Source: Planctomycetota bacterium (GTDB lineage Bacteria; Planctomycetota; B15-G4). Taken from it: 64,000 nt of DNA. The translations under genes and the position numbers were made by a program. Shown piece by piece: positions 1 through 62,192 of the stretch. Each line of letters begins with the position of its first letter. The first letter of the stretch is position 1. The stretch lies in contig JBQTIY010000001.1 of assembly GCA_052387675.1 (NCBI GenBank), positions 160,227-224,226 of the forward strand, given 5' to 3'. The notes beneath the pieces are model-generated. The model was not told where the DNA came from, did not search any database, and was given only the letters and a program-made list of their open reading frames with translations.

Positions 1-507
1 CGGCAACCCCTGAGTAGCAGCGTCAATGGCCCCTATTACCGGAGCGAAATAGGTCGAGCGGGCCAAAGGGAGCAGGTAGACATCCTGAGCGAAAGCATAG
101 TCTTGCGCCTCGGCCGTGAACTCGGACGAACTGAAGATCGCAGTTTGATAGTGAAATCGGCGTACCGATGGCTGCCCCGGCGACCGCGCCACCCAGTACT
201 CAGACACATCCTTCAAGACACCGACAGCTCCGCGTACTACTGGCAATCCAATCCTTCGATGATCCGCATAGCACTTGGCCTCAACCAGTAGGCGCTGAGG
301 ATTACTGAACGGCTGGCCTATCCGAAGGTCCGCGATAGCGTCGATCTGATGTTTCGTACCCCTACCAGCCACCGTGATGCCAGCCGGGCCGATTGCCAGG
401 GTCGGGTCGGTACCAGGGTCGGTCATCGTGCGGTAGCCCGCAGCACGAAGAAGCGTCAGCACCGCCTCCTCTAGCAGAAGCCCTCGCACTTGGTGAATGG
501 ATGCCAT
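1..507 (-). CDS. Partial CDS (N-terminal 169 aa in window; gene continues beyond position 1): Mrr-cat-like PD-(D/E)xK restriction endonuclease domain protein
   Basis: Not in the ORF track because it runs off the window edge. Hand translation of the minus strand from ATG at 507 gives MASIHQVRGLLLEEAVLTLLRAAGYRTMTDPG...GTKHQIDAIADLRIGQPFSNPQRLLVEAKCYADHRRIGLPVVRGAVGVL...AIFSSSEFTAEAQDYAFAQDVYLLP. The pattern (LLxxLGY ... D-x-IDxxA ... E-A-K ... fTs.FT.eA..yA) matches the Mrr_cat restriction-endonuclease fold. An in-frame stop lies upstream at 565-567. Confidence 0.55.
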   Translation of the reverse strand, partial: MASIHQVRGLLLEEAVLTLLRAAGYRTMTDPGTDPTLAIGPAGITVAGRGTKHQIDAIADLRIGQPFSNPQRLLVEAKCYADHRRIGLPVVRGAVGVLKDVSEYWVARSPGQPSVRRFHYQTAIFSSSEFTAEAQDYAFAQDVYLLPLARSTYFAPVIGAIDAATQGLP

Positions 508-560
508 AGCTAACAGTCGATAGCTTGGAGTGCGGTCTGAGCCATAGAGCGCGCCATGCG

Positions 561-785
561 CTACTTAAACCAACCATGTCGAGTAGCTTCGGACACCAGC
601 TTCCTCAGCGTTCTCGCATCCTCAATCAGTGCCTGCCCGCGAGACGGCTTCAAGTGGCCCGATTTGCTATCTCGCCAAATGAACCGGTAACCAACTGATG
701 GACTGCCCCGGTCCCAGTGCCACCTGCATTCCTGAAAGCAGAGGCCGCGCTTGTTCCCAACTTCATTAAGTACTTTGACCCTCAT
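561..785 (-). CDS. Small hypothetical protein (74 aa) between the two Mrr-like nuclease genes
   Basis: ORF-track ORF; no recognisable motif. It fills the gap between the two nuclease genes on the same strand, and the neighbouring gene start/stop are 8 nt apart. Confidence 0.2.
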   Translation of the reverse strand: MRVKVLNEVGNKRGLCFQECRWHWDRGSPSVGYRFIWRDSKSGHLKPSRGQALIEDARTLRKLVSEATRHGWFK

Positions 786-792
786 TGTCAGT

Positions 793-1707
793 TCACTCCT
801 CCACGAAATAGTCCGAATCGATGCGCTTGATCTCGTAGGTCTCGACGGGCGAGACGCCCACGCCGTGGTCGATCATCAGGCTTGCCAACTCGGCCCCATC
901 GATAAGCGCAATCTTGCAGTCGATCTGCTTCGTGTACTCGACGGCATCTCGAGAGAAGTCGGATGTGGTGATGAAGACACCTTTTCTTGCCCGCTGGCCC
1001 TGGAGCGCGCCGACGAACTTCTGAAGTTCCGGGCGTCCCACCGTGGCCTCCCATCGCTTGGCCTGGATGTAGACGACATCGAGACCGAGACGATCCTCCT
1101 TGATGATCCCGTCGATGCCGCCGTCGCCGCTGCCGCCGACTGCCTTTCCAGCGTCCCTCAGCGTTCCGCCATAGCCCATCTTGACAAGCAAGGCTACGAC
1201 AAGGCGTTCAAAAAACGCGGGAGAGCAGCCCTTCACTCGATCCAGCACCTCGGCCTCGAGGTTAGCGCGGAGCCCTTCGTAGGCTCCCTCGAGTGTCTCC
1301 TCTGGCGTTGCTGATTCGGACTCAGCTGCGGGCTCTTGCTCTGTAGCCTCCTCCCGCTGGCGGCGAATCGCCCGAAACGCCCGATACTCCTCGAACCGCT
1401 CGAGGTACGGCATGTCGATCCTGACTGGCGCGGACCTCAGGACATCCTTGCCGCGTTCGGTGATTAGAAACACTCCCCGGCGCGGCGAAGCAAGCAGACA
1501 TGACTTGCCGAGGAAAGTGCGAGCCCACCCCGTGCGGTTGTGAAGGACTGTCTGCCGACCACTGGGCAGAAGCGAGACCTTCTCCGCCTCCGTGAGCCGA
1601 AACTCCACCGCCATGGCGTCGACTGCCTCGCGGAGGGTGTGAGCCTTGTCATCGGCCGCAAACCGAAGCAGCGGGAGCATGAGCGTCTGGAAATCCGGAA
1701 CCGGCAT
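793..1707 (-). CDS. mrr: Mrr restriction system protein (type IV modification-dependent restriction endonuclease; N-terminal winged helix + Mrr_cat nuclease)
   Basis: 304 aa. N-terminal MPVPDFQTLMLPLLRFAADDK..LREAVDAMAVEFRLTEAEKVSLLPSG is a Mrr_N-like winged helix. C-terminal ...FFERLVVALLVKMGYGGTLRDAGKAVGGSGDGGIDGIIKEDRLGLDVVYIQAKRWEATVGRPELQKFVGALQGQRARKGVFITTSDFSRDAVEYTK is a canonical Mrr_cat (D..IDG...QAKRW). Confidence 0.85.
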   Translation of the reverse strand: MPVPDFQTLMLPLLRFAADDKAHTLREAVDAMAVEFRLTEAEKVSLLPSGRQTVLHNRTGWARTFLGKSCLLASPRRGVFLITERGKDVLRSAPVRIDMPYLERFEEYRAFRAIRRQREEATEQEPAAESESATPEETLEGAYEGLRANLEAEVLDRVKGCSPAFFERLVVALLVKMGYGGTLRDAGKAVGGSGDGGIDGIIKEDRLGLDVVYIQAKRWEATVGRPELQKFVGALQGQRARKGVFITTSDFSRDAVEYTKQIDCKIALIDGAELASLMIDHGVGVSPVETYEIKRIDSDYFVEE

Positions 1708-2114
1708 GGAGGCCCTTTCCCTAAGCGCGAGGGCGGCACCCTATCGCGAGCGCGATGTGTCGCACAAGGCCCGGCGCTCCGAGAGCTGATCACTAAAGGG
1801 CAACTCGCCGAGCCCGTGCCCACCCGCCTCGGCACTTGCTCATGGTCGGAGAAATCATGTTTGAGCTGCTCTGCTAGGCCGAGGGAAGTCGGGGATTGCG
1901 CCACATCATCTACACCTCAGCCTTCGGCGCCTCGCAGTTCGCCCATTCCGCGTTGCGGGCTGCCGTCGTGGGCGCGCGAGTAGTGTTCAATCTCACCAGC
2001 ACTTAAGCGTGGTGTCAGGGTGGTGATCTCAGCCTGGGCGACCGGTTCTGAGTTTTCGGGAGGCACAACGGCCACAGACACCAATTGCTGCTGCGACTGT
2101 CTTGCCGCTGCCAC

Positions 2115-2489
2115 TCACGGCGTACTCAGCCCGTAGATCGTAAACGCGAACGCCGTCGCGTACGCAACCCCCAGAGCGCCAACTGACATGGCGACGAGTT
2201 CTCCTGCGTTCATCTTTTGCCCAGCTTGGTCACCGAACTGTCGCGCCACGCCGAGGACAGCCAAAAGAACCAAGGTGAAGAAGACCAGATACGCGCCCAC
2301 AACCACAAATATCCCAACCGCACTAGCTGTGAGCCCTTTCATCTCCGCCTCCGCCAGGATCGCTTTCAACGTGCCACCGAGAGTCATGACCTCCGTAAGT
2401 TTCAAAACACTGATTCCAAGCAGAATGCTCAAGACAAGCAAGTAGCGGTCGCCCAATTGATCATTCTTGTTCGACAATTCGGGGGCCAT
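2115..2489 (-). CDS. Small integral membrane protein (124 aa, 3-4 predicted TM helices), last gene of the ECF-like module
   Basis: Hydrophobic segments LLVLSILLGISVLKL, VGIFVVVGAYLVFFTLVLLAVLGV, VGALGVAYATAFAFTIYGL. It directly abuts the upstream S-component gene (2489/2490). Confidence 0.5.
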   Translation of the reverse strand: MAPELSNKNDQLGDRYLLVLSILLGISVLKLTEVMTLGGTLKAILAEAEMKGLTASAVGIFVVVGAYLVFFTLVLLAVLGVARQFGDQAGQKMNAGELVAMSVGALGVAYATAFAFTIYGLSTP

Positions 2490-2963
2490 CTACTTCGCCT
2501 CCGGTTGCGGAAACGCCAGCTGCACTCCCCTATGGACCGCTATGCCACCCACTGCCCCCACAACCGCCTGTACCGCGTTGAATGGGAGCTCGCTCACAGC
2601 CGCCGCCAACCCCATGCCGGGAAGAAATATCTCTGCCACAAAGTAAACGAATACCATGGCACCGACCGCCAAACCGACCCATCCCCCGTGCTTGCGACCA
2701 AGGCTGCCCGCAATGAACCCCTCCAGCCCCTTCGCTAGCAGAGTCACCGGAGCGAATATGAAGAAGCCACCAATCATGTCTGCAGCCGCACTCCCCGCCC
2801 CACCAGCTATCGCCCCATACTTTTTGCCGAGGAACAGACCACTGAATACTACGGCCATGTCACCGAGATTCAGGTAGCCCTGGGTTCCGGGTATCGGAAT
2901 CCGGATAACCATGGTCAGGGATGCCACTACTCCCGCGAGCAACAGGACAACGAACCACTTCAT
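2490..2963 (-). CDS. ECF transporter substrate-specific (S) component-like membrane protein
   Basis: 157 aa, about 5-6 TM. N-terminal MKWFVVLLLAGVVASLTMVIRIPIPGTQGYLNLGDMAVVFSGLFLG and the glycine-rich middle (GAIAGGAGSAAADMIGGFFIFAP) resemble ThiW/QueT/BioY-type S components. Its start overlaps the stop of the fused ATPase/T gene by 4 nt (2960-2963). Confidence 0.6.
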   Translation of the reverse strand: MKWFVVLLLAGVVASLTMVIRIPIPGTQGYLNLGDMAVVFSGLFLGKKYGAIAGGAGSAAADMIGGFFIFAPVTLLAKGLEGFIAGSLGRKHGGWVGLAVGAMVFVYFVAEIFLPGMGLAAAVSELPFNAVQAVVGAVGGIAVHRGVQLAFPQPEAK

Positions 2964-5266
2964 CTCTTACCTCCACTTTTGAGTGCCTTGTGTTGAGCAA
3001 CCGTCCTCGACATGCACATCCACGCCCAGGGTGACCAGACGAGGATATTGCGTATCACTGTCCCGAGGAGCTCAGGGGAACGGCGCAGCGCTACCCACGC
3101 TTGCCTTGGGACCATGTTTGCAGCCTCGAAGTCCGGCCAACGACTGAGCATGACCATGGCTTGCATCGTATCCAAAAGCGCTTCAGTTGCGAATTCCGCC
3201 GAACGAAACAGCAGAGTGGCCCGGCGCCGCCATCTCCCGAACAAGCCAAACTCCAAGGGAGACGTGAACTGGAAGAACAGCATGCCGCTTGTGATTGTCG
3301 CCAACATGCGTAGGGGATGCGAAAGCGTGTAGAGCCACCGTGTAGTTGGTGTATCCAGGGACATATAGGGCGAGAGACTTGCGCCCGACATAACCACGAG
3401 CGCAGCTACCGCAACATACAAGAGAGATCCAAAGGCCCATGTCACCATCAAGATGTGAAACGCTGATCTCTGCACCGCGGCACGCAAGAGCACTACGAGA
3501 AGACTTGCAACCAGGGACAGTGCTACACAGTAGACGACCAACGTAGATTCTGAGACAACGAACACGAAGCCGTAGCAGAATGTCGCGACAGCCACAAGGC
3601 CCAACAACTTTAAGGACAGCGGCGCACTCCATAGCATCGCGCGTGCATGGGTCTCTCTCCCGGCATCCGCGCCATGGACCGCTTCCTGATGAGGAGGGCG
3701 CTCCCTACTGATATGACCGTCTGTCAGGTAGAGCAGTTCCGCTCGGAGGGAATCTGCGAGATGCGTGTTATGCGATATCACAAGGATGCTGCGGCTGTCA
3801 CCGCACATGCTACTTAAGGCTGTGAGAAACTCGGCTTCGTCCTTTGCAGACAAGCCCCAAGTCGGCTCGTCCAGCACCACCACTCGGGTCGTCGGCGTGA
3901 TCGCTGAGGCCAACACAAGGAGTTTCTGCTGAAGCGGCGTTAGTTGAATTACACATCGATGGTCCGGAACGGGCACCCAGCTATCAATCAACTGAAGCGC
4001 TATCGCGTTGTCGTGGCAGTGCTTCTTGTAGCTACCCACGGTGGGCAGAGGTAGCTGCTGTAGCGGATACTGGCTGAGGTACGTCACGCAAGACAAGATG
4101 TCTTCACGAGTAAGGGACGCCAATGGTGTTCCGTTGAGCTCAACCATCCCTTTGTCCGGTGTCAACAGCTTGTACACCAGCTTTGCAATACTAGACTTGC
4201 CAGAACCGTTGGGGCCAACGATGCAATAGTTCTGACCGGGATAGATCGCGAAGGACAGCGCGTCCAACAGCGGCTCTTGACGCACGATTTCTGACCCCGG
4301 ATAGTCGAGGAAGCTGACTTCCTTAAACTGGACAAGCGGGGCCGTACCTTCCGGACGTACTCCAGTGGGTATTTGGTCGCGTCGCCGCTCGGGTCTGTGA
4401 ATGTCTTCTAGAAAATCCATCGGCCGAAGCTGCCCTCCATCGAGAAGGTAAGCGGCATCGGTGACGCAAAGCAGATCTTCCCTCTCATGTTCGAGCAAGA
4501 CGATGTGGGATGAACGCGCACTCCGGATAGCCGCGAGCAGGGCCGCCCTGCCCGAAGAATCAAGCCAGGGAACTACTCCATGAAGCGCATAGCAACTGCG
4601 ATCACTGGAAAAGGCTAGGGAAAGGGCTACACGCATCCGCTCGCCACCGGAAAGCGCCGAAAGGGTGCGCCGCAGGAAGGATGGTGCAAGACCAAATCGC
4701 GTGAGTGCGCTTATGGCTTGGTTGCGGTCCATCCCAAGAGAGCGGAAGTTGTCCTCAACCCGGGAGAAGAGCAGCATCTGATCGGGATCGGGGCCGACGT
4801 ACGCGGTCGATTCTGGGAGAGCGCCCTCAACTACATCCAGTTTGCCTGTGTAGGGCCTAAGAAGTTCTTCGATGGGTGCCCATGGAACAACACCGTCGGT
4901 AATGGGAATTAGGCCTGCGATAATCCCGCCAAGCACGTGGTACGCAGGGGTGTTTTCTCCAACGATCAGACACGGGCGTCCGGGTGTGAGTTCGATCCTG
5001 GCTCCATCGAGCAGCACGACGCCACACTTCAGTACGTAGTTGAGCTTCATGCTAAGCACAGGCGCCATCTCATTCTCTGCCACCAGGATGTTCCACGGAG
5101 AGTTCGTCGCCATTCGGTGTCGCTGAGTCGCAGAGTGTGCCTCGCGGTAGATCCCCCCCCAACACTTCCGTTCAGCGGCGGCGCGTAGCACCGCCCTCTG
5201 CGTGCTGTTGTTGGGCGGCGCCGCTAAGTGCCCCGCTTCGGGAGTTGGTCGATTCGGCCCGGTCAC
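2960..5266 (-). CDS. Fused ECF-type ABC transporter energy module: NBD1 (degenerate) - NBD2 (consensus) - EcfT/CbiQ-like transmembrane domain in one 768-aa polypeptide
   Basis: NBD1 has an atypical P-loop (LIVGENTPAYHVLGG), an intact signature (LSGGERMRV) and a degenerate Walker B (IVLLEHE). NBD2 has Walker A GPNGSGKSS, Q-loop LSQYP, Walker B VVVLDEPT and H-loop ISHN, with a degenerate signature (LTPLQQK). The C-terminal ~230 aa carry 5-6 TM helices (LLGLVAVATFCYGFVFVV, LVVYCVALSLVASLLVVLL, LMVTWAFGSLLYVAVAALVVM) and an amphipathic EcfT-like coupling segment. The true start may be the internal MATNSPW (about 5113); the longest ORF start overlaps the DUF4145 gene stop by 4 nt. Confidence 0.7.
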   Translation of the reverse strand: MTGPNRPTPEAGHLAAPPNNSTQRAVLRAAAERKCWGGIYREAHSATQRHRMATNSPWNILVAENEMAPVLSMKLNYVLKCGVVLLDGARIELTPGRPCLIVGENTPAYHVLGGIIAGLIPITDGVVPWAPIEELLRPYTGKLDVVEGALPESTAYVGPDPDQMLLFSRVEDNFRSLGMDRNQAISALTRFGLAPSFLRRTLSALSGGERMRVALSLAFSSDRSCYALHGVVPWLDSSGRAALLAAIRSARSSHIVLLEHEREDLLCVTDAAYLLDGGQLRPMDFLEDIHRPERRRDQIPTGVRPEGTAPLVQFKEVSFLDYPGSEIVRQEPLLDALSFAIYPGQNYCIVGPNGSGKSSIAKLVYKLLTPDKGMVELNGTPLASLTREDILSCVTYLSQYPLQQLPLPTVGSYKKHCHDNAIALQLIDSWVPVPDHRCVIQLTPLQQKLLVLASAITPTTRVVVLDEPTWGLSAKDEAEFLTALSSMCGDSRSILVISHNTHLADSLRAELLYLTDGHISRERPPHQEAVHGADAGRETHARAMLWSAPLSLKLLGLVAVATFCYGFVFVVSESTLVVYCVALSLVASLLVVLLRAAVQRSAFHILMVTWAFGSLLYVAVAALVVMSGASLSPYMSLDTPTTRWLYTLSHPLRMLATITSGMLFFQFTSPLEFGLFGRWRRRATLLFRSAEFATEALLDTMQAMVMLSRWPDFEAANMVPRQAWVALRRSPELLGTVIRNILVWSPWAWMCMSRTVAQHKALKSGGKR

Positions 5267-5934
5267 CCCTTATCGCGTTTCGCGATCGCATCCAACTTCT
5301 CCTTGGGGAGTGAACCGTAGATGCTACTGATCTCATTGGGCTCCGTGATCAGCTTCGTTGCGATGAAGTTAACGAGCTTGAAGAGAGCACCCGCGACCGC
5401 GCGATTGTCGCGAAGATCAATCGCTCCCGGGTGAACGGCCTCGTTTCCTATCACGCGCACGCTGTCGAGGGCCTCCTGAACCCTTGGCGGAAGTCCGGCC
5501 GCAACCAGCGCAGCGACATCATCATTGATGTTCTTGCCAGGTTGGCCCAAATGAGAACAAAGCCTCTGAATCGCTAGTCGAAGAAGCGCAGCCGAGCCAC
5601 GGGGTGAAGCAGCTAGAATCGCCCGCGCTTCCTCATAATCGTTCTTGATGTCGGCGGGCAGATCCGGGTTCGGTGGCTCAGCACCCCCAGTGTTTGGAAA
5701 GAGCATTCTGTCGCCCAGCCAAATGGTGGGATAGCGGCACCGCTCGCACTGGCTCACGAGGAATCTCGAATCTCGAAACTCCTCGCCAAAGCCGTTAGCC
5801 ATCGACGATCCATGCATGTAGAACCAGACCTGGCGGCAGTAGACGTGGCAGTTCACACAGTTGAACGCGTCAAGTCCATTCGCGGGCAGCACGTACTCAG
5901 GCTTCATACGTTCCTTTCGGCCGCCCAACCGCAA
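5263..5934 (-). CDS. Zinc-ribbon + DUF4145-like domain protein (first gene of the island operon)
   Basis: 223 aa (a likely start MKPEYV at about 5907 gives 214 aa). The N-terminus has CVNCHVYC...CERCRYP, a CxxC...CxxC zinc ribbon. The C-terminal ...LRLAIQRLCSHLGQPGKNINDDVAALVAAGLPPRVQEALDSVRVIGNEAVHPGAIDLRDNRAVAGALFKLVNFIATKLI is an all-alpha DUF4145-like region, a domain typically found fused to restriction-modification/Abi proteins. Lower GC. Confidence 0.5.
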   Translation of the reverse strand: MRLGGRKERMKPEYVLPANGLDAFNCVNCHVYCRQVWFYMHGSSMANGFGEEFRDSRFLVSQCERCRYPTIWLGDRMLFPNTGGAEPPNPDLPADIKNDYEEARAILAASPRGSAALLRLAIQRLCSHLGQPGKNINDDVAALVAAGLPPRVQEALDSVRVIGNEAVHPGAIDLRDNRAVAGALFKLVNFIATKLITEPNEISSIYGSLPKEKLDAIAKRDKG

Positions 5935-6391
5935 TCAGACCGGTCTGTGTTTTCAGTTTGCCCGCTGCCAAGCACGGCGGGCAGGGTCGCATCAAATCGG
6001 TTACAGTCGTCCCGGTGGATTCGAGTTGCGGAACTCACGTTGCCGTCATCGCACCACGAAGGAAAGGCCTGCTCTTGCCTCGCAAACGCAGCGATTGGCT
6101 GTCGCGAGAGCCTAGCGATTGCGCTCTCGTCGGCCGAGCAGTTAACCACGCCCATTTTGAGCCCCTTTCGCGGAGAGCAAGAGAGCGTTGTAACCGCCAT
6201 CGCGCGGGCCGTGAAGGCTTCGGCGGTCAACTGCCTGCGAGCCACATCACCTGCGCGTCGCGCCCGGCACGACACCCCTCGCAATCCTGCGCAGAACGGG
6301 CGATTCCTGGCGCTCGCCGCGCGGCCGGTCGCGGCGCTCGCGGAGCCTTCCGAGCACCCCGCCCTTGCCCGCCTCGTTCGCATGGAGGCGA

Positions 6392-6465
6392 TGGTTCCCG
6401 AACTAGGATTCGAACCTAGATACCCAGATCCAGAATCTGGTGTCCTGCCGTTGGACGATTCGGGA
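6392..6465 (-). tRNA. tRNA-Gln (anticodon CUG)
   Basis: The reverse complement of 6392-6465 folds as a 74-nt cloverleaf: acceptor UCCCGAA/UUCGGGA with a U1:A72 pair (typical of bacterial tRNA-Gln), D stem GUCC/GGAC, anticodon stem CCAGA/UCUGG, loop UUCUGGA (anticodon CUG), T arm CUAGG-UUCGAAU-CCUAG, discriminator A, encoded CCA. Confidence 0.8.
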
Positions 6466-6589
6466 AACGATGGATCGCGAGGCCGGTCCTCAAGACCGAA
6501 GCCGCAAGGGGCCATTGTGGCGAAGGCGCAGCGGAAGCGTCAACGCCGCGCCCTTCTGCCAGCGCGCCCTTTTGCGAGAATGCGCGGGA

Positions 6590-7507
6590 ATGCCCACCGC
6601 TCACACCGTCCCCGCGATGACCCCCACCACCGAACCGCTCAGCTTCCTCGGCCTGCCGGACGCCGGCCCTGCCGCGCAGGTGGCTGTCGTGCTGGCGCCC
6701 TACGACCTCACGAGCACCTACGGCAAGGGCGCCGACCGCGGCCCGGCCGCCCTGCTCGCCGCGAGCGGCGCCGTGGAAACCTGGGACGACGAGACCGGCC
6801 GCGACCTCGAAGAGCTGGGCTACACCACCTGGCGCCCCGCCGACCCGGCCGCCTTCGGCCGCCTGCGCCCCGAAATCATGGTGCGCGAACTCGAGCGCGC
6901 CCACGCCGCGCACATCGAGGCCGGCCGCTTCACGCTGGGCGTCGGCGGCGAGCACTCCATCAGCTACGGCCAGTTCGCGGCCTTGCGCGCGCGCTACCCC
7001 GACCTCGCCGTGCTGCAAGTGGATGCGCACTGCGACCTGCGCGACACCTACAAGGACAGCCCCCACAGCCACGCCTGCATCGCGCGCCGCTTCCTGGAGG
7101 ACGGCGCGCCGCTCGTCCAAGTGGGCATGCGCAGTTGCAGCCGCGAGGAGGCGGCGCTCATCGCCGCGCGCCGCCTCACCGTGCACTGGGCGCGCGACGT
7201 GGCCGGCCGCGTGGCCTATCACCGCGACGTGCTCGCGGTGCTCGCCAACCGCCCCGTCTTCGTCACCGTGGACCTGGACGGCTTCGATCCTTCGCTTGTG
7301 CCCGCCACGGGCACGCCCGAGCCCGGCGGCCTGACCTGGTTCGACGTCACGCGCCTGCTCTTTGCCGTCGCGCGCCACAACACCGTGGTCGGCGCCGACA
7401 TCACCGAGCTGGCGCCCACGCCCGACGGCGTCTTCTCGCGGCCCAGTGAGTTCCTCGCCGCGCGCCTGGCCGCCAAGATGGTGGCCTACTTCGTCAAGGC
7501 GCCTTAA
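6590..7507 (+). CDS. Arginase/agmatinase/formiminoglutamase-family ureohydrolase
   Basis: GVGGEHSISYG, VLQVDAHCDLRDTY, VTVDLDGFDPSLVPATGTPEPGGL are the Mn-binding motifs of the arginase fold. The ORF-track N-terminus (GTG at 6440) overlaps the tRNA and is probably spurious; the ATG at 6590 (MPTAHT) is in frame. Confidence 0.8.
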   Translation: MPTAHTVPAMTPTTEPLSFLGLPDAGPAAQVAVVLAPYDLTSTYGKGADRGPAALLAASGAVETWDDETGRDLEELGYTTWRPADPAAFGRLRPEIMVRELERAHAAHIEAGRFTLGVGGEHSISYGQFAALRARYPDLAVLQVDAHCDLRDTYKDSPHSHACIARRFLEDGAPLVQVGMRSCSREEAALIAARRLTVHWARDVAGRVAYHRDVLAVLANRPVFVTVDLDGFDPSLVPATGTPEPGGLTWFDVTRLLFAVARHNTVVGADITELAPTPDGVFSRPSEFLAARLAAKMVAYFVKAP

Positions 7508-8361
7508 CCCGGCGCGGATTCCCCGGCCGTTGCGCTGCCGGCGAACTCCTTGCGCCGCAGCACGAAGGTCGTGAGCGCGAGCGTGGCCACGATGACGGCG
7601 CCTAGCATGAGCAGCGACTCAGTGGCCGTCGTGGGATCGACGAGCTGCTCCTGATTGCGTTCGAGCGTCAGCGGCTCAAAGGCATCGTGCCCGGTGCCGA
7701 GCCAGAGCAGATTGCGGGCGTGGTAGGAAAGCGAGGCGAAGGCGAAGCCCTGCGGCAGCCGCGAAATGAAGCCCTCGAAGACGAGCACATAGCCCAGTGC
7801 CGTCACGACCGAGCGCCGCAGCAGGATGCCGAAGCAGACGAAGACGGCGATGTAGGCCGCGATGGCGAGCGCCGCCACACCGAGAATGAGCAGGACGTCG
7901 GGCAGGTAGTGCTCGAGCGCGCCTTCGAAGCTCAGCACACAGAGTACGAAGAGCAGCGCGATGGCCGGCAGCAGCAGCACGAGCGCGCGCCGCACCGCGG
8001 CAAACCAGCGGCCGACGACCAGCGCCCCGCGCGACAAGGGCGCGCCGATCACATAGCCCGCCGTGCCGCCCTCCCACTCGTCGCCGAAGGCCGCCGTGCC
8101 GAGAAAGATCGTGGTGAGCGGAACGATGACGCCCAAGATCGCCGAGTTGACCCACTTGGCAAAGTGATTGAAGGCCTGGCCGCGGCCCTCGCCCCAGAGC
8201 AGGAAGGCGATCTGAATGACGAGCGGCAGGGCGACGAGCGCCGCCACACCCCACAGGCGACGCCCGCGCAGCGCGCCGGCGCTGCTCGTGGCCGCCGCCA
8301 CCCACACGGCGCGCAGGCCCGTGGGCGGTGCCGGCCGGCGCGTGGCTCCGTCGCCGCTCAT
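7504..8361 (-). CDS. ABC-2 family transporter permease
   Basis: 285 aa, 6 predicted TM. The start overlaps the stop of the upstream ATPase by 4 nt; the stop overlaps the convergent ureohydrolase gene by 4 nt. Confidence 0.65.
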   Translation of the reverse strand: MSGDGATRRPAPPTGLRAVWVAAATSSAGALRGRRLWGVAALVALPLVIQIAFLLWGEGRGQAFNHFAKWVNSAILGVIVPLTTIFLGTAAFGDEWEGGTAGYVIGAPLSRGALVVGRWFAAVRRALVLLLPAIALLFVLCVLSFEGALEHYLPDVLLILGVAALAIAAYIAVFVCFGILLRRSVVTALGYVLVFEGFISRLPQGFAFASLSYHARNLLWLGTGHDAFEPLTLERNQEQLVDPTTATESLLMLGAVIVATLALTTFVLRRKEFAGSATAGESAPG

Positions 8362-9365
8362 CGATTCACCAGGTAGGCGAAGACCGAGCCGAGGTCGTCG
8401 TCGAGCGGTTCGATGGAGTGCAGCTCGAGGCGCTCACCAGCCCCCGGACTCGTCGCCGCTGCGCCCGCGGCGGCGGTCGTGACGAAGCGCTGGAGCACGC
8501 GGCAGAGTGTGTCGGGCTGCATAGTCTCGACAATGAGCGCCTGCGGCTGCAGCGTGAGCGCGGTGAGCAGGTTCTCTTGCTCGAGCAGCCGGCGCGCCAG
8601 GCCGCGCGGGTCGGGCGTGCCGAGTCGGATGCGGCGCGCATGCTTCTCAAGCAGGTCGCGGATGTCGGGCACGGTGCCCTCGGCCAGCACCTGGCCGTGG
8701 TGCAAGAGCACGATCGAGTCGGTCATGGCCTCGACTTCGTGCAGCACGTGGCTGCTCACCAGCACGGTGACGCCCTCATCGCCGAGCTCGCGCACGATGC
8801 GGATGAAGTCGCGCCGCATGACCGGATCAAGGCCGGTGAGCGGCTCGTCCAGCACGAGCACGTCGGGGTCGTGCAGCAGCGCCTGGGCCAGTTTCAGCCG
8901 CTGACGCATGCCCTTGCTGAAGCCGCCCGTGCGCCGATCGGCGGCGTCGGCGAGCCCGACGTGCTGCAGGCACTCGGCGGCCCGTCGCCCGGCCTCGGCG
9001 CCGACAAAGCCGCGCAGTTGCGCCTGGTCCACGAGAAAGCGCCGCGCGGGAAGGTCTTCGTAGAGGCCGTCGCCGTCGGGCACAAAACCGATGCGCGCCA
9101 GCGAAGGCAGATGGTTGCGCACCGGCACGCCGTCGAGCAGCACGCGGCCGGCGTCGTCGCGGCCGCGGCTCACGCCACTGCCCGCTGACGCCATGCCGGT
9201 GATGAGCCGGATGAGTGTGGACTTGCCCGCTCCGTTGGGGCCGAGCAGGCCGGTGACACCCGGGCCGATCGTGAGCTGCACGGCGTCGAGGGCCAGCACG
9301 TCGCCATACCAGCGCGAGGCCTTCTCCACCGTGATCGTGGCGGGTGCGCGGCGCGCGGCGCTCAT
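8358..9365 (-). CDS. ABC transporter ATP-binding protein
   Basis: Internal start MSAARRAPATITVEKASRWYG at 9365 (the ORF-track upstream extension is spurious). Walker A GPNGAGKST, signature FSKGMRQRL, Walker B VLVLDEPLTGLD, H-loop SSHVL. The start overlaps the upstream permease stop (9362-9365). Confidence 0.9.
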   Translation of the reverse strand: MSAARRAPATITVEKASRWYGDVLALDAVQLTIGPGVTGLLGPNGAGKSTLIRLITGMASAGSGVSRGRDDAGRVLLDGVPVRNHLPSLARIGFVPDGDGLYEDLPARRFLVDQAQLRGFVGAEAGRRAAECLQHVGLADAADRRTGGFSKGMRQRLKLAQALLHDPDVLVLDEPLTGLDPVMRRDFIRIVRELGDEGVTVLVSSHVLHEVEAMTDSIVLLHHGQVLAEGTVPDIRDLLEKHARRIRLGTPDPRGLARRLLEQENLLTALTLQPQALIVETMQPDTLCRVLQRFVTTAAAGAAATSPGAGERLELHSIEPLDDDLGSVFAYLVNR

Positions 9366-10284
9366 GCCACCACCTCCACCGGGCGCACGCGGCGCAGCAT
9401 GACCGGCACGCAGAGCGCGACCCAGCCCAGGAGCACCAGCGCGCTCTGCCAGACGGGCACGTGCTTGCTGATGTTCGAGGCGCTGCCCATGATCCACGCG
9501 CCGACCTGCTGCACGTTGAAGCCGATCTTGAGTAGCGAGAAGCGTTCGTTGCCGAAGACCTCGATGAGAATGTTGGAGGCCACGAACTCCAGCATCACGA
9601 CGACCGCGATCCAGAGGATGGCGGCGTTGCGCGCGCGCGAAGCCAGCGCCGAGGCCGTGACGATGAGCAGCGAGGGCACCGCGACCCAGATGGCGCCGGC
9701 CAGAATCGTGCGCCCGAGCAATTCGATGAGTGCCAGCGCCTCGCCGGGCTGGCCCCACGACAAGCTCAGCCCAATGAGAATGAGCACGGCGGCCGGGATG
9801 ACCGTGACCGCCGCGAGGAAGGTGCCGATGATGGCCAGCTTGCCGAGCAGGTACTGGCGCACCGTGACCGGCCGGCTGAGGTAGAGCTCGAGCGCGTTGG
9901 CGCGGCGGTCTTCGGCGATGAGGCCCGAGCCGAGCAGCACGCAGCCCAGCAGCACGAAGGGCCACTGGAAAAGGAACATGTAGCTGAAGGCATTGTCGGG
10001 ACTCGCCGCCAGCATCTCGGCGAACTCCGGCTCTTGCAGCGCGCTGGCCAGCCCTACCGGAAACTTGTCCGCGTTGGCGAGCACGTAGGCGCGCACGTAG
10101 AGCGCGCCGGCCATGAAAATGAAGGGCCCGTAGGCAGCGAGCAGCAAGAGCAGGGCGGGGAGCTTCTTGCGAAACAGGATGGTGATGCCGCGACGCAGGC
10201 CGGCGCTCCACAGCACGGACACAGCCGGCACGGTGCCGTCGCGACTGCCGGTCCAGCGCGAGTAGCTGCGATCGTGAATGACCA

Positions 10285-10285
<1 letters not shown>
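9362..10285 (-). CDS. ABC-2 family transporter permease
   Basis: 307 aa, multiple TM helices; the start codon shares position 10285 with the stop of the upstream ATPase gene. Confidence 0.65.
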
Positions 10286-11208
<923 letters not shown>

Positions 11209-56889: not shown

Positions 56890-58367
56890 GCACGCGGCTC
56901 ATCGTGACGCTCAGCGCGGCGACGCCGGCCGAGGCCGCGCCCCTGCTGCAGCAGCCGCCGGAGGGCGCCGACTATCTTGAGTTGCGTCTCGACTTGCTGA
57001 CGCGGCCCGATGGCGAGAGCGTGCGAGCGCTGCTGGCCTTGCCGCGCAGCATTCCCGTCATCGCGACATGTCGCCCCGGCCCGGCCCTGCCCGACGACGC
57101 GGCCCGGCTCGCGCTGCTGCAGACCGCCGGCGAGGCGGGCGCCGATGTGCTCGATGTCGACGACACGCTGCTGGACCGCCTGCCCGCCAGCGTGCCCGGC
57201 GAGCGCTTGGCGAGTTGCCATGTCGCGCGCTTCGCGCCACGCCTGAAGGCTCTGGCCGGGCGCGTGGCGGGACACGGCACGCGCTGGTCCAAGCTCGCTG
57301 TCCCGGCCGACACACCGCGGCAGCTCGCAGAGTTGCTCGCGATCCAAGAAGCTCACGCGGGAACCCTGGCCGTAGTCCCCACCGGGCGACTCTCGGAAGC
57401 CGGCCGGGTCATGAGCGCGGGACGCGGAGCGCCCTTGAGCTACGCCGCACTCGACCCGCTGCGTCCCGGACATCCCGATCAGCCGGCGCTGGCTCGCCTG
57501 CACGGCGTGCATGGCATCGGCCATGTCGGCACTCACACACGCTTCTTCGCCGTGCTGGGCAGTCCGGTAGCGCATAGCCTCTCTCCGGCCTGGCACAACG
57601 CGGTGTTCCGCGGCGCCGGCATGGACGCGCGCCTCGTGCCGCTGGATGTCGAGCGCGTGCGCGATGTGCTCGAAGTGGCCGACGCCCTGCGGCTGGACGG
57701 CTTCGCCGTGACGCATCCGCTCAAGCGCCAGGCCCTCGAGGCGGCCGAAAGCAGCCTGCCTGGTGCGAAGACCACCGGCTCGGCCAACACACTGCTGCGC
57801 ACCGCCACGGGCTGGCAGGCCCGCAACACCGATTGGAAGGCGGCCAGCGAACTCCTCCCGAAACTCCTCAAAGCCTGGCGCAAGGCGCAGCCAGGCCAGA
57901 CCCCGCGCGTCCTCTTGCTCGGTTCCGGCGGCGCGGCGCGCGCCATCGCCGTGGCCCTTTTCGACGAGGATGTCGAGTTGGGCATCTGGTCGCGGCGACT
58001 TTCGAATGCACGCCTGCTGGCCGATGCACTGAAGGACAGCATGCCGGTGGTGGCGATTCCCGAGCCGGCGCACTTTCCGGCTGACATTGTGGTGAATGCC
58101 ACGCCGCTGGGCTCGCCCGGTGCTCAGACCACCGAACTGCAGGTTCAGGCCGCCTGCTTCAGGCCGGGGGCCCGTGCGGTCGATCTGGCCTATGGCGCCG
58201 CCGAATCGTGTTTTCGCGCGGCCGCCCACGAGGCCCAGGCTCAACTGACCAGCGGGGAGGATTTTTTCTGTTTACAGGCTCGCCGACAGTCGGAAGTCTT
58301 CACGGGAGCCCCCGTGCCCGAGGCCACGCTGAACGAGGCGCTGCGCCGCTGCGGGATAAAGACCTGA
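56886..58367 (+). CDS. aroDE: Bifunctional 3-dehydroquinate dehydratase (type I) / shikimate dehydrogenase
   Basis: N-terminal type-I DHQase (YLELRLDLL...PVIATCR); C-terminal AroE (FAVLGSPVAHSLSPAWHNAVF, NTDW, LLLGSGGAARA). Confidence 0.9.
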   Translation: MSTRLIVTLSAATPAEAAPLLQQPPEGADYLELRLDLLTRPDGESVRALLALPRSIPVIATCRPGPALPDDAARLALLQTAGEAGADVLDVDDTLLDRLPASVPGERLASCHVARFAPRLKALAGRVAGHGTRWSKLAVPADTPRQLAELLAIQEAHAGTLAVVPTGRLSEAGRVMSAGRGAPLSYAALDPLRPGHPDQPALARLHGVHGIGHVGTHTRFFAVLGSPVAHSLSPAWHNAVFRGAGMDARLVPLDVERVRDVLEVADALRLDGFAVTHPLKRQALEAAESSLPGAKTTGSANTLLRTATGWQARNTDWKAASELLPKLLKAWRKAQPGQTPRVLLLGSGGAARAIAVALFDEDVELGIWSRRLSNARLLADALKDSMPVVAIPEPAHFPADIVVNATPLGSPGAQTTELQVQAACFRPGARAVDLAYGAAESCFRAAAHEAQAQLTSGEDFFCLQARRQSEVFTGAPVPEATLNEALRRCGIKT

Positions 58368-58416
58368 AACCCGAGGTCAGGCATCTGGGCGCAATGCGCT
58401 AGGATGGGGCTTCACC

Positions 58417-60069
58417 GTGCGCCGACTCAAAATCATCTTCGTCAGCCTGAACAACACCATCTTCGCGGATGGTTCGCGCATCCTGTCGGCGGCGCTCCGC
58501 AAGCAGGGGCATGACGTCCACTTCGTCTGCCTGACCCAGGACGGGGACAACTACTACCCCGAACCGGTCCTGCGGCAGTTCTCGGACCTCGTCGCGGAGA
58601 AGGCCCCGCACCTCGTCCTGTACAGCTTCCTCTCGGACAACTTCCTGCGGGCCAGCCGCGTGACCGAGCGGATCTACCGGGACCACCCGGCCGTGACCCA
58701 GGTCTGGGGCGGCGTGCACTGCACGATCGCACCGGAAGAGGCCATCAAGCACGTCAAGGTCCTCTGCCAGGGCGAAGGCGACGAAGCGCTGCCGGAGTTC
58801 GTGGAGAAGTTCGCGAACGGCGAGGACGTGACGAGCGTTGAGAACTTCTGGTTCCGCGACGAGCGCGGCGAGGTCAAGGCCAACGCCATGCGGCCGCTCA
58901 TGCTTGATCTCGACCGGATGCCCTGGCCGGACTATGAGATCGACACGCACTTCGTGCTCGATGAGGGCCAGCTCAAGCCGATGACCGTGGCGCTGCTGGA
59001 GAAGTACCACAACAACGCGCCGCTGGGCTTCCCCACCTATCCGATCTTGAGCAGTCGCGGCTGCGCCTTCCGCTGCAGCTTCTGCTACAACGCGACCTAC
59101 AAGCAGATCTTCGCCGGACAGAAGTCCGTGCGCTTTCGCAGCCTGCCGGACGTCGTGAACGAGCTGCGTTACATGAAGGACCGCTTCCCCTTCTTCCGCT
59201 CCTTCTTCTTCAGCGATGACGACTTCTTCCTGCGCAGCAAGAAGGCGCTGGAGGAGTTCTCCACGCTTGCCCGCGAGAAGATCCCGGACCTGCTCTTCGA
59301 CGCCTGGTGGGGCAGCACGGCCACGCCGGCTTCGCTGAGCAAGGACAAGCTCGATCTGATGTACGACATCGGCTTCCGCGTGGTCGCCGTGGGCGTGCAG
59401 ACCGGCAGCGAAGACTTCAATAAGCGCATCTACGACCGCGACTTCCCGAATCAGCTCTTCATCGAGAAGATGTGGATGATCGACCGGCATTACCGCCGGA
59501 AGATGGTGATTTCGCTCGACTTCATCGTGGACTGCCCCTACGAGACCGAGCAGGACACGCTCGAGACCGTGCGGCTCATCGAAAAGCTCCCCAACTGGGT
59601 GAGCCTGGCCGTGTTCACCTTCGTCTTCTATCCGGGCTCACCGCTCTACAAGCGGGCCATCGAGGCGGGCGAGATCACGGCCGACCCCGAGCTGTACAAC
59701 GCCAAGAGCTTTCAGCCCTTCGAACACAAGGGCCACAGCTATGTCAGCCACGTGATGATCGCCATGGGCTGCGCGAACTACGTCATGCCGCGCTGGTTCA
59801 AGCGCGTGCTCATCAGCCGGCCCATGGTTTGGGCGGGCCGCCACACGCCGCAGTTCCTGCTCGATCTGTGGGACTGGAAGCCCATCTACAACAAGCTCTG
59901 GGCCTACAACCAGGGCACCGCACTGGGCCTCGGCAACCGCAAGAAGCACTGGTGGCAGTTCTGGAACTTCTTCCGCGGCGCCGAAGAAAAGCTCCCCGCG
60001 CAGGAAGCGCAGGTCATGCAGGAGCGCGGCCAGATCGATCAGTGGACTAAGGGCAGCCTGACTGGCTGA
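58417..60069 (+). CDS. B12-binding domain-containing radical SAM protein (class B radical SAM)
   Basis: The N-terminal cobalamin-binding Rossmann-like module (KIIFVSLNN...GHDVHFVCL) plus SSRGCAFRCSFCYN (CxxxCxxC) radical-SAM cluster motif. GC and amino-acid composition differ from the neighbours. Confidence 0.85.
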   Translation: MRRLKIIFVSLNNTIFADGSRILSAALRKQGHDVHFVCLTQDGDNYYPEPVLRQFSDLVAEKAPHLVLYSFLSDNFLRASRVTERIYRDHPAVTQVWGGVHCTIAPEEAIKHVKVLCQGEGDEALPEFVEKFANGEDVTSVENFWFRDERGEVKANAMRPLMLDLDRMPWPDYEIDTHFVLDEGQLKPMTVALLEKYHNNAPLGFPTYPILSSRGCAFRCSFCYNATYKQIFAGQKSVRFRSLPDVVNELRYMKDRFPFFRSFFFSDDDFFLRSKKALEEFSTLAREKIPDLLFDAWWGSTATPASLSKDKLDLMYDIGFRVVAVGVQTGSEDFNKRIYDRDFPNQLFIEKMWMIDRHYRRKMVISLDFIVDCPYETEQDTLETVRLIEKLPNWVSLAVFTFVFYPGSPLYKRAIEAGEITADPELYNAKSFQPFEHKGHSYVSHVMIAMGCANYVMPRWFKRVLISRPMVWAGRHTPQFLLDLWDWKPIYNKLWAYNQGTALGLGNRKKHWWQFWNFFRGAEEKLPAQEAQVMQERGQIDQWTKGSLTG

Positions 60070-60117
60070 TCCCTGACCAGCCCTGACCGCTGAGCGCGGT
60101 CTGCAGGCTGGCGCGCC

Positions 60118-61872: not shown

Positions 61873-62192
61873 CGGGAACTCCAACTCGAATGCGGCGATG
61901 GCGGGAACCTGATCCGTGACCGAGCGGGCAGCCGGCAGGCCTCGCTCAGTACCCCCTTCGCTGTCCAGCCGCACCGCTGACTCAGTGCGTCGACCGTGGA
62001 AAGGGGCGGGTGTGACCCAGGTCTGGTTCATATTCTGGCAGAAAAGTGCGGGTGAGGGGATGTCGAGGTCGAGAGGCAGCCCGAAGCTTTGCGCTCCTCC
62101 GGCAGCGTCCGGAGCGACTATCGGCCGAATGGGCCTCTCGGATGGACCTCGAGCGGCCACGGTTCGCCTGCGGAGGGCGTGCGGGCGCTCCT

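Follow-up and report, generated by a model that had tools for sequence, protein, structure and literature searches.

A probable ECF-type importer with a single-polypeptide energy module and one degenerate ATP site on a planctomycete genomic island

Canonical group I ECF transporters, represented in our comparison by loci L023 and L024 (ATPases P0013 and P0016), combine a tandem A1-A2 ATPase with an S component of family PF07155 and a T component of the CbiQ family, encoded in the order AA'-S-T. Both of their ATP sites are consensus. The T component is recognisable as CbiQ (PF02361) and carries two Arg-centred three-residue signatures in cytoplasmic helices (PMC3246461), and the S component docks on it through an AxxxA motif in helix 1 (PMC3246461, PMC11109136). 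L. brevis ECF-HmpT (PDB 4HZU), whose substrate is reported as pyridoxamine (PMC4860826), belongs to group II and draws on a shared EcfAA'T module of canonical type. The pairing of one consensus with one degenerate ATP site has been reviewed for heterodimeric ABC transporters such as TM287/288 and is frequent in exporters (PMC3971661). Finally, a canonical NBD-NBD-CbiQ protein of 788 aa (P0095) holds its ATPases and T component in a single chain; both of its Walker A motifs are consensus, and its CbiQ domain is genuine, matching EcfT of 5d3m at E 7e-5.

Here we describe a three-gene module in a 64,000-nucleotide stretch of DNA from a Planctomycetota MAG, the whole of which we call the window. 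With a probability of about 0.75, we read the module as an ABC importer of ECF type, dedicated (group-I-like) and belonging to a subfamily that has diverged very far. Its genes run co-directionally on the minus strand from 5050 to 2115 and encode a fused AA'-T' protein, the candidate single-polypeptide ECF-type energy module (2960-5050, 696 aa from ATG 5050), a 157-aa S component (2490-2963) and a membrane protein of 124 aa with some three TM helices (2115-2489). The stop of the fused gene overlaps the start of the S gene (ATGA, 2960-2963), which is directly abutted by the 124-aa gene. The module shares with L023 and L024 two NBDs in one polypeptide, a neighbouring PF07155 S gene, a third membrane gene in the operon and the lack of a gene for a solute-binding protein; its family differs from them in gene order, which is AA'-T'-S. 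The two ABC ATPase domains, and an S gene beside the energy module whose product falls in a recognised S-component family, are what is expected of an ECF-type system and support the single-polypeptide module of this type that an earlier note on this DNA had proposed. Since P0095 has the same A-A'-T domain order in one chain, the architecture as such is not unprecedented.

The longest open reading frame at the locus (2960-5266, minus strand, 768 aa) opens at GTG 5266. The earlier note described its start as overlapping the stop of a DUF4145 gene and inferred translational coupling, an overlap that was claimed because the longest frame was taken. GTG 5266 is merely the first possible start; the one that is annotated and conserved is ATG 5050, 216 nt downstream, which leaves a gap of 212 nt after the DUF4145 stop. 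We assigned this start from family conservation, which begins at M73 of the long frame (= ATG 5050) with none before it, and from the NCBI annotation (696 aa from ATG 5050, identical to MGQ0551711.1, our P0001), the Shine-Dalgarno signal being uninformative. The protein consists, as first described, of two ABC_tran stretches and a C-terminal helical membrane domain of ~225 aa, here called T'. NBD1 (4406-5050) is supported by alignment with canonical tandem ECF ATPases, NBD2 (3701-4336) by Pfam ABC_tran (1e-22) and motif alignment, and T' (2963-3649) by an AF2 model, Foldseek, hhalign and homology to stand-alone genes of ~229 aa; all lie on the minus strand. The full-length AF2 model has a pLDDT of 89.5 and a pTM of 0.90, and at that pTM the three domains are confidently placed relative to one another. 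The same fusion is found in five independent assemblies at 38-53% identity. Thus it is not a frameshift artefact, a merger of separate genes that the note itself had envisaged. Throughout the fused homologues the linkers are intact and the catalytic residues of NBD2 are all invariant.

In NBD1, the Walker A position reads GENTPAYHV (4934-4960), the whole P-loop having gone with no GK[ST] left. The Q-loop Gln is lost as well (YVGPDPDQ, 4778-4801), and the Walker B position is YALHG (D to H, E to G), followed by the D-loop WLD (4559-4591), while the signature LSGGE is retained (4640-4654). The aberrant P-loop and the preserved signature had been reported correctly. In contrast, the LLEHE that had been taken for Walker B corresponds in the alignment to the H-loop/switch of canonical ECF ATPases, a region that reads VLLEHE in NBD1 (4484-4501). 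NBD2 is indeed consensus except for its signature: Walker A is canonical (GPNGSGKSS, 4190-4216), the Q-loop is YLSQYP (4064-4081), Walker B (VVVLDEPT) and the D-loop lie in VVVLDEPTWGLS (3848-3883), the H-loop is VISHN (3767-3781), and the degenerate signature is LTPLQQ (3926-3943). By these motifs NBD2 would be competent. The complementary degeneracy, of Walker A/B in NBD1 and of the signature in NBD2, is kept in all 10 of 10 family members, and the reciprocal site, composed of Walker A/B and H-loop of NBD2 and LSGGE of NBD1, is fully consensus, which gives the one-consensus/one-degenerate pattern. Judged from the motifs, one ATP site is competent and the other dead; NBD1, its P-loop being wholly lost, may bind no nucleotide at all.

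The same complementary pattern, with Walker A/B degenerate in one NBD and the signature in the other, is seen in TM287/288. Those proteins, however, are type IV exporters made of TMD-NBD half-transporters, whereas the window NBD1 is without the entire P-loop; the canonical ECF ATPases, again, are consensus at both sites. The asymmetry had been described as hard-wired by the fusion. The asymmetry itself stands, but the fusion is not its cause, since unfused members from Spirochaetota share it; as far as their motifs tell, it is a property of the whole AA' family and not a product of fusion to T. The window NBDs are 24-28% identical to the canonical tandem ATPases P0013 and P0016 over both domains. 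NCBIfam leaves ECF_ATPase_2 and CydD tied at ~97 bits, both far below their cut-offs, and such sequence comparison shows no particular affinity of the NBDs to ECF proteins. When the full-length model was searched with Foldseek, all that came back were tandem-NBD chains (E 1e-17), a result that is uninformative on T'.

T' is predicted to form four TM helices and two long C-terminal helices (AF2 model, pLDDT 87.6). It carries an invariant Arg in LLFRSAEF (3191-3214) and an invariant IRN...W.PWAW (3017-3058); besides the first Arg, an invariant R-N lies in the last helix. PF02361 (CbiQ/EcfT) was absent from the fused protein and from seven T' sequences at E up to 10, and a T' profile had no match among PDB sequences at E up to 10. 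When the profile was run exhaustively with HMMER against 1.84e9 representatives, it gave 30 matches, all of them T' itself, and all T' homologues are named 'hypothetical protein'. A small T' profile aligned to the single CbiQ domain of P0095 with hhalign gave a non-significant result, T' having no match to that domain. (A word-index search with T' alone gave no hit, missing even the identical P0001, a limitation of the index; the alignment query worked.) Going by Pfam, therefore, T' is not a member of the CbiQ/EcfT family, and unlike a canonical T component it is invisible to that library and fused to the ATPases.

A remote signal to EcfT/CbiQ did appear in fold and profile comparisons. Against 350,542 PDB chains, the top three Foldseek matches of the T' model were EcfT/CbiQ chains (5d3m_D, 6zg3_D and 5x3x_q) over 227-248 columns, each of them individually non-significant (E 0.3-1.2, TM 0.31-0.35). 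Alignment of T' to four canonical CbiQ sequences with hhalign was collinear over 188 columns, with a score of 27.9 (P 0.004, probability 8%) that lies ~7 SD above 25 block-shuffled controls (9.5-19.4; reversed sequence, 16.0), and it brought the conserved R and the 'TSP.EF' region of T' into register with their CbiQ counterparts. In this alignment the invariant Arg of T' (F-R-S/A, 3191-3214) falls on the first Arg signature of T components, and the position of the second is Leu in the fused forms and Gln in Spirochaetota. For the proposed EcfT-like C-terminal domain there is thus a remote likeness in fold and profile, and no similarity by HMM.

The S protein matches PF07155 at 6.2e-24 (85.3 bits against a cut-off of 26.7) and PDB 4hzu_S (HmpT) at E 9.7e-9 over 130 residues, confirming the S-component-like gene suspected downstream of the fusion. 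The AxxxA of helix 1 is present as AGVVA, and the motif occurs in 8 of 10 aligned family S proteins. HmpT is its closest solved homologue, both being small six-helix-type S units, but the group II module that serves HmpT is unlike the one in the window, and identity is low, so that the substrate of HmpT cannot be transferred. In the NCBI annotation the protein is named 'ECF transporter S component'; it alone is recognised there, the motor being called a generic ABC protein. The small membrane protein that had also been noted downstream is the 124-aa product. It has no Pfam or NCBIfam match; its gene is kept after S in four of the five fused loci (window, L001, L025 and L028) and is absent from unfused loci. 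The protein probably serves the fused-lineage operon as an accessory subunit.

Unfused relatives are found at ~20 Spirochaetota loci, which encode a tandem ATPase, a separate T' of ~229 aa and a PF07155 S component, in the order AA'-T'-S wherever the locus is long enough to reveal it. The T' domain of the window is homologous to these stand-alone genes between AA' and S. Two independent Rosetta-stone fusions join the partners, AA'-T' in five loci and T'-S in one protein (P0208). The Spirochaetota synteny reads pyrC, pyrF, AA', T', S, an aminotransferase-like gene and pyrimidine-nucleoside phosphorylase, and dCTP deaminase, ThyX and a nucleoside phosphorylase are encoded close to the T'-S fusion (locus L026). 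This context of the relatives weakly suggests that the substrate is a pyrimidine-related compound or a B6/HMP-like vitamer. No regulator or riboswitch indicating a substrate was found at the module: an Rfam search of positions 1-8000 (E up to 1) did not detect the upstream riboswitch that the earlier note had proposed to look for, its only match being the tRNA described below, and the 231 nt preceding ATG 5050 form no more stable a fold than shuffled sequence (z -0.31). Promoter and terminator scans gave nothing above shuffle expectation.

The module lies on a low-GC island, as had been recognised from the start. Positions 1-6000 of the window have 57-61% GC against ~70% in the remainder, with a step from 0.58 to 0.70 at the right-hand border. 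That border is marked by a tRNA-Gln(CUG) gene (6392-6465, minus strand; ARAGORN, and Rfam tRNA at 61.7 bits) whose 3' end is towards the island; in a search for an att site, no repeat of at least 11 nt from the tRNA was found elsewhere in the window. The island continues past the left edge of the window.

Two genes outside the module flank it. The DUF4145 gene (5263-5907, minus strand) encodes 214 aa that match PADLOC PD-T7-4 at 3.9e-82 over profile positions 1-208 of 211 and PF13643 at 2.5e-15, with a Cys4 zinc ribbon (CVNC, CERC) and R151-x7-H159 in a HEPN-like domain. RAZR, defined by an N-terminal Cys4 zinc ribbon and a C-terminal DUF4145/HEPN-like domain with catalytic Arg/His in a single gene, is a self-sufficient abortive-infection RNase that provides defence when expressed alone in E. 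coli, and the spacing of its R146/H154 is that of the window protein (PMC13017515). With every one of these features present in its sequence, the gene is assigned as a full-length RAZR/PD-T7-4 homologue; in contrast to known RAZR, it comes from a Planctomycetota MAG, is known here from sequence and is not tied functionally to the transporter. Given this assignment, no new link between defence and transport is to be inferred from it. The other flanking gene (793-1707, minus strand) encodes an Mrr-type (type IV, methyl-directed) restriction endonuclease, with Mrr_N and Mrr_cat domains and a PADLOC mREase_IV match of 2.5e-90.

A gene taken from a MAG, and lying within a compositionally foreign island, might be suspected of being artefactual, through misassembly or a frameshift, or else a decaying island pseudogene without current function. 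This reading is in practice already refuted by the independent fused homologues with their intact linkers and invariant NBD2 residues; moreover, the S and 124-aa genes are intact and conserved, and the full-length model is confident throughout. Another explanation would make T' an unrelated membrane scaffold, convergent with EcfT, in an ECF-like system of independent origin that has only the S fold and the ABC ATPases in common with true ECF transporters. CbiQ similarity at the HMM level is indeed lacking in every search, the fold matches stay below significance, the second Arg signature is missing, and T' (~225 aa, four TM and two long helices) is shorter than the canonical T proteins of 250-289 aa that we compared. 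Yet the three top places in the fold search of the whole PDB all go to T components, the collinear profile alignment stands well clear of its shuffled controls with R and 'TSP.EF' in register, and canonical T genes stand in the same gene context; we consider convergence unlikely.

The earlier note weighed an acquired vitamin/micronutrient importer against recruitment of an ECF-like module to a role in defence or connected with nucleic acids. In phage defence or another conflict the module might act as effector or sensor with RAZR and/or Mrr. The window module does lie between two defence genes on a tRNA-linked island. Elsewhere, the gene directly upstream in L001 (795 aa) has a weak N-terminal Mrr_cat-like match (E 0.0022; PADLOC E 0.003), L002 has a DUF559 endonuclease-like gene nearby, a phage-type integrase is directly upstream of the closest unfused AA' (L007), and the family is rare and patchy outside Spirochaetota. 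However, Mrr-type enzymes are stand-alone. RAZR likewise functions as a single gene (PMC13017515), its homologue here does not really overlap the fused gene, and both DUF4145 and Mrr are missing from every other module locus, DUF4145 being found at 0 of ~25 related loci. The unfused orthologues sit in conserved metabolic synteny, and tblastn of T' against plasmid and phage collections gave no match. The PADLOC matches of the fused protein reflect generic ABC-ATPase similarity, among them mad3 (81.5 bits), which we rejected as an identification because Pfam ABC_tran scores the same. The supposed neighbourhood link between DUF4145 and ABC ATPases is not upheld, and the adjacency is coincidental. 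What survives is the ECF-type module with an S component on an acquired island; recruitment to defence is very unlikely. A broader proposal would make T' and the single-site AA' a separate ECF-like class, with a non-CbiQ/EcfT scaffold, an obligate one-ATP cycle and an extra 124-aa subunit in the fused lineage, whose mobile fused version outside Spirochaetota would be cargo of defence or integrative islands with a conflict role, for example to take up or keep out a nucleoside-type compound in the course of infection. Taken as a whole, this seems to us improbable.

For the divergent ECF-type importer that we favour, we infer a complex in which the 157-aa S component would bind a small substrate in the membrane and the 696-aa protein would provide the complete energy module in one chain, comprising NBD1, NBD2 and the scaffold T'. 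In place of EcfT, T' would couple the NBDs to the S component, its long C-terminal helices resting on the NBD dimer and its membrane helices holding S. ATP would be hydrolysed at a single composite site, which pairs the LSGGE of NBD1 with the Walker A, Walker B and H-loop motifs of NBD2. The second site, made up of NBD1 Walker A/B and the NBD2 signature, would be inactive and probably have a structural role alone. Each cycle would accordingly use one ATP to close and open the NBD pair, and T' would pass the movement on so that S topples, as in canonical ECF transporters, and substrate would be imported. The 124-aa membrane protein would probably be an accessory subunit. The module was probably acquired horizontally from a lower-GC donor into the island next to tRNA-Gln, where it has RAZR on one side and Mrr on the other, each an independent defence system of a single gene.

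On this account T' would represent a new T scaffold family unseen by current domain libraries, and ECF-type transporters built on it would be missed or half-annotated. The thoroughly dead ATP site would make it possible to ask, in a natural system, whether a single hydrolysis event per cycle suffices to topple and release S. Furthermore, a whole energy module in one polypeptide, together with the rare T'-S fusions, should be convenient for structural and single-molecule work. In a metagenome scan with the fused-clade alignment, 75 loci proved to be generic ABC ATPases that had matched through the GGERMRVA pattern and were discarded, and the one other, L028, was a real new member of the family.

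Five genes occupy positions 1-6500 of the window, all reading in one direction on the minus strand, and their products are identical to five consecutive NCBI entries (MGQ0551708-712) on a 314-kb contig of a Planctomycetota MAG. One of them encodes a fused protein in which a tandem ATPase (NBD1-NBD2, here AA') is followed by a membrane domain (T'); its reading frame spans 2960-5266 at maximum (768 aa), and NCBI annotates 696 aa of it as an 'ATP-binding cassette domain-containing protein'. Among 5.8e9 proteins searched, only four cover the full query: the window protein P0001 and P0002-P0004, at 38-53% identity. A fifth fused copy, truncated, comes from JGI metagenomes (locus L028). The next relatives, P0005-P0010 (454-497 aa, 35-38% identity), consist of the two NBDs only; directly downstream on their contigs lies a separate gene for a 215-234-aa protein, a clear homologue of the window protein's C-terminal domain with no Pfam match, and then a gene for a PF07155 S component. 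The order AA'-T'-S was found in every locus long enough to display it, about 20 in all; 13 of these come from species genomes, Spirochaetota MAGs in every case but one, which is labelled only 'uncultured bacterium'. A different natural fusion, P0208 (379 aa; 6001-7140 of locus L026), joins T' (residues 2-217) to PF07155 (residues 235-375), with a 473-aa AA' gene directly upstream. On comparative grounds, these two different gene fusions and the invariant gene order argue strongly for a single complex of AA', T' and S, and they dispose of the objection that a frameshift artefact had merged separate genes. We noticed a phage-type integrase (533-1522 of locus L007, minus strand) immediately upstream of P0005, which among the unfused AA' proteins is nearest to the fused clade; this hints that this branch of the family is mobile.

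Pfam recognizes two ABC_tran stretches in the fused protein. We assigned motif states by aligning the family with canonical tandem ECF ATPases and then checking the coordinates. In NBD1, Walker A reads GENTPAYHV against the consensus GxxGxGK[ST], the Q-loop lacks its Gln (YVGPDPD), and the signature LSGGE is retained. The earlier note had taken LLEHE for the Walker B motif; this is in fact the switch (H-loop) region, where His is replaced by Q or N in relatives, whereas at the true Walker B position NBD1 has YALHG, with His in place of Asp and Gly in place of the catalytic Glu, and the D-loop after it (WLD) is retained. That NBD1 is probably catalytically dead still holds, and now on stronger grounds. 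NBD2 has an intact Walker A (GPNGSGKSS), the Q-loop Gln, Walker B (VVVLDEPT) and H-loop (SH), and its signature is LTPLQQ. In a head-to-tail dimer, the catalytic motifs of NBD2 and the signature of NBD1 would therefore make up exactly one consensus site, the other being fully degenerate. All ten family members, the unfused ones included, display the same pattern; degeneracy thus characterizes the family as a whole and does not stem from fusion to the membrane domain. Among ABC exporters, such complementary NBD degeneracy is well known (PMC3971661).

The EcfT-like character of T', as originally proposed, found no backing in direct sequence comparison. Neither the fused protein nor seven T' sequences matched PF02361, even at E up to 10; a T' profile retrieved nothing from all PDB sequences; and HMMER, run exhaustively over 1.84e9 cluster representatives, returned only 30 proteins, all of them T' itself (two fused). 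Structure and profile comparison, in contrast, gave a signal that was weak yet consistent. AlphaFold2 modelled the domain confidently (72 sequences, pLDDT 87.6), with four membrane helices and then two long helices. When this model was compared with 350,542 PDB chains in Foldseek, the best three matches were all T components, EcfT of folate and pantothenate transporters (5d3m_D, 6zg3_D) and CbiQ (5x3x_q). The alignments spanned 227-248 columns, and no single match was significant on its own (E 0.3-1.2, TM 0.31-0.35). With hhalign, 92 T' sequences aligned collinearly over 188 columns with four CbiQ sequences from canonical operons (score 27.9, P 0.004), as against scores of 9.5-19.4 for 25 block-shuffled controls and 16.0 for the reversed control. 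T components are defined by two Arg signatures (PMC3246461); in this alignment the first coincides with the invariant Arg in L-L-F-R-S of T', and opposite the Arg of the second T' has Leu or Gln. A full-length model of the fused protein reached pLDDT 89.5 and pTM 0.90, which makes the predicted arrangement of its three domains relative to one another a confident one. We conclude from the models and alignments that T' would do the work of an EcfT, to which it is probably related as a very distant homologue, membership of the CbiQ family not being demonstrated.

The S component is far clearer. The 157-aa protein (2490-2963, minus strand; NCBI 'ECF transporter S component'), already suspected to be S-like, is a plain PF07155 member (85.3 bits) with the AxxxA docking motif in helix 1; among solved structures, the S chain of the L. 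brevis ECF-HmpT complex is closest to it (4hzu_S, E 9.7e-9). For HmpT-like S units, links to hydroxymethylpyrimidine and to pyridoxamine have been reported (PMC4860826). In Spirochaetota (loci L003, L006, L011, L013, L017, L019 and others), the module sits in a conserved block of pyrC, pyrF, an opposite-strand 781-aa gene, AA', T', S, a 411-aa aminotransferase-III-like gene, pyrimidine-nucleoside phosphorylase and recJ; in the differently arranged L026, dCTP deaminase, ThyX and a PNP/UDP-family phosphorylase are close by. These neighbours weakly suggest, with low confidence, a pyrimidine-related substrate. For the 781-aa protein, otherwise uncharacterised, the sole match is a weak one of glucosamine-6-P-isomerase type (E 2e-4). 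One S component (243 aa; 3209-3940 of L006, plus strand) carries a hydrophobic insertion of ~80 residues that splits the otherwise conserved protein of ~160 aa near its centre. Abutting the S gene in the window is a 124-aa membrane protein gene (2115-2489, minus strand; NCBI 'hypothetical protein'), whose product has about three hydrophobic segments and no family match in Pfam or NCBIfam. Four of the five fused loci (window, L001, L025, L028) have such a gene after S, and no unfused locus does. The product probably serves the fused lineage as an accessory subunit.

The S gene start overlaps the stop of the fused gene (ATGA, 2960-2963). A similar overlap, and with it translational coupling, had been claimed between the fused gene and the DUF4145 gene upstream (5263-5907, minus strand, 214 aa; 5263-5934 at maximum; NCBI 'DUF4145 domain-containing protein'). 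This requires the first in-frame GTG (5266) as the start codon. No decisive ribosome-binding signal was found upstream of the candidate starts; the NCBI start is ATG 5050 (M73 of the long frame), the alignment of all ten family members begins only there, and the unfused relatives start exactly at this point (M-x-F-S-Y). The coupling is thus unsupported. With ATG 5050, a gap of 212 nt follows the DUF4145 stop; it holds no Rfam match, and hence no recognizable riboswitch, and no unusual fold.

The DUF4145 protein matches the PADLOC PD-T7-4 model over its full length (E 3.9e-82). PD-T7-4, since characterised and renamed RAZR, is a zinc-finger and HEPN-like DUF4145 RNase that causes abortive infection after assembly on phage ring proteins and confers defence when expressed alone (PMC13017515). 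The window protein has a Cys4 ribbon (CVNC at 17, CERC at 54) and, in its DUF4145/HEPN-like domain, R151-x7-H159, spaced as R146/H154 of RAZR; it is a full-length homologue of this anti-phage RNase in a Planctomycetota MAG. An Mrr-type restriction endonuclease (793-1707, minus strand; NCBI 'restriction endonuclease'; Mrr_N and Mrr_cat; PADLOC mREase_IV, type IV, methyl-directed, 2.5e-90) is a third cargo item on the same low-GC island. This island, described in the earlier note, is real: GC is 57-61% over 1-6000 and about 70% over nearly all the rest of the 64-kb window. At its right it adjoins the 3' end of tRNA-Gln(CUG) (6392-6465, minus strand; tRNA gene prediction and Rfam), and at its left it continues past the window edge. 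The window contains no second copy of the tRNA end, so the left border and any integrase would lie outside it.

Might the mobile version of the module itself serve in genetic conflict? Some non-spirochaete relatives also occupy variable contexts: besides the integrase next to P0005, there are a DUF559 gene in L002 and a REase-like 795-aa gene (2230-4617 of L001, plus strand) that immediately precedes the P0002 fused gene. This last has only a weak N-terminal Mrr_cat-like match (E 0.0022) and may be an uncharacterised nuclease or defence gene. Against such a role, the transporter architecture is intact, the orthologues lie in housekeeping synteny, and T' was not found in the plasmid and phage collections searched. 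Nor does the pairing with DUF4145 recur: neither this gene nor Mrr lies beside the module in any other locus. The transporter thus sits on a variable island with an independent defence system of one gene on either side. We therefore consider the module much more likely to be ordinary island cargo and give the conflict role a small probability.

Among ECF systems, the tandem A1-A2 ATPase is an established arrangement (PMC6828968), canonical operons that combine such an ATPase with a PF07155 S and a CbiQ T are not hard to find, and at least one canonical protein, P0095, carries NBD-NBD-CbiQ in one chain; the A-A'-T architecture is thus not new in itself. What is distinctive is a very small T family (30 clusters at 50% identity among the 1.84e9 representatives) that neither Pfam nor PDB-sequence searches recognize, a thoroughly degenerate ATP site within an ECF-type system, and a fused form that is rare (five loci) and has its own extra small subunit. 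The fused module should be relevant to specialists in ABC transporters, with little wider surprise.

Just past the tRNA, in native-GC sequence, we observed an ORF with arginase/agmatinase-like motifs (6440-7507, plus strand) and a cluster of membrane protein and ABC ATPase ORFs (7504-11208, minus strand), the latter giving weak ABC matches to the query NBDs (E about 1e-7 to 1e-8); all of these ORFs are unrelated to the ECF-type module. A second stretch of reduced GC (0.63-0.68 against about 0.71) lies at the right end of the window, at 58001-64000.
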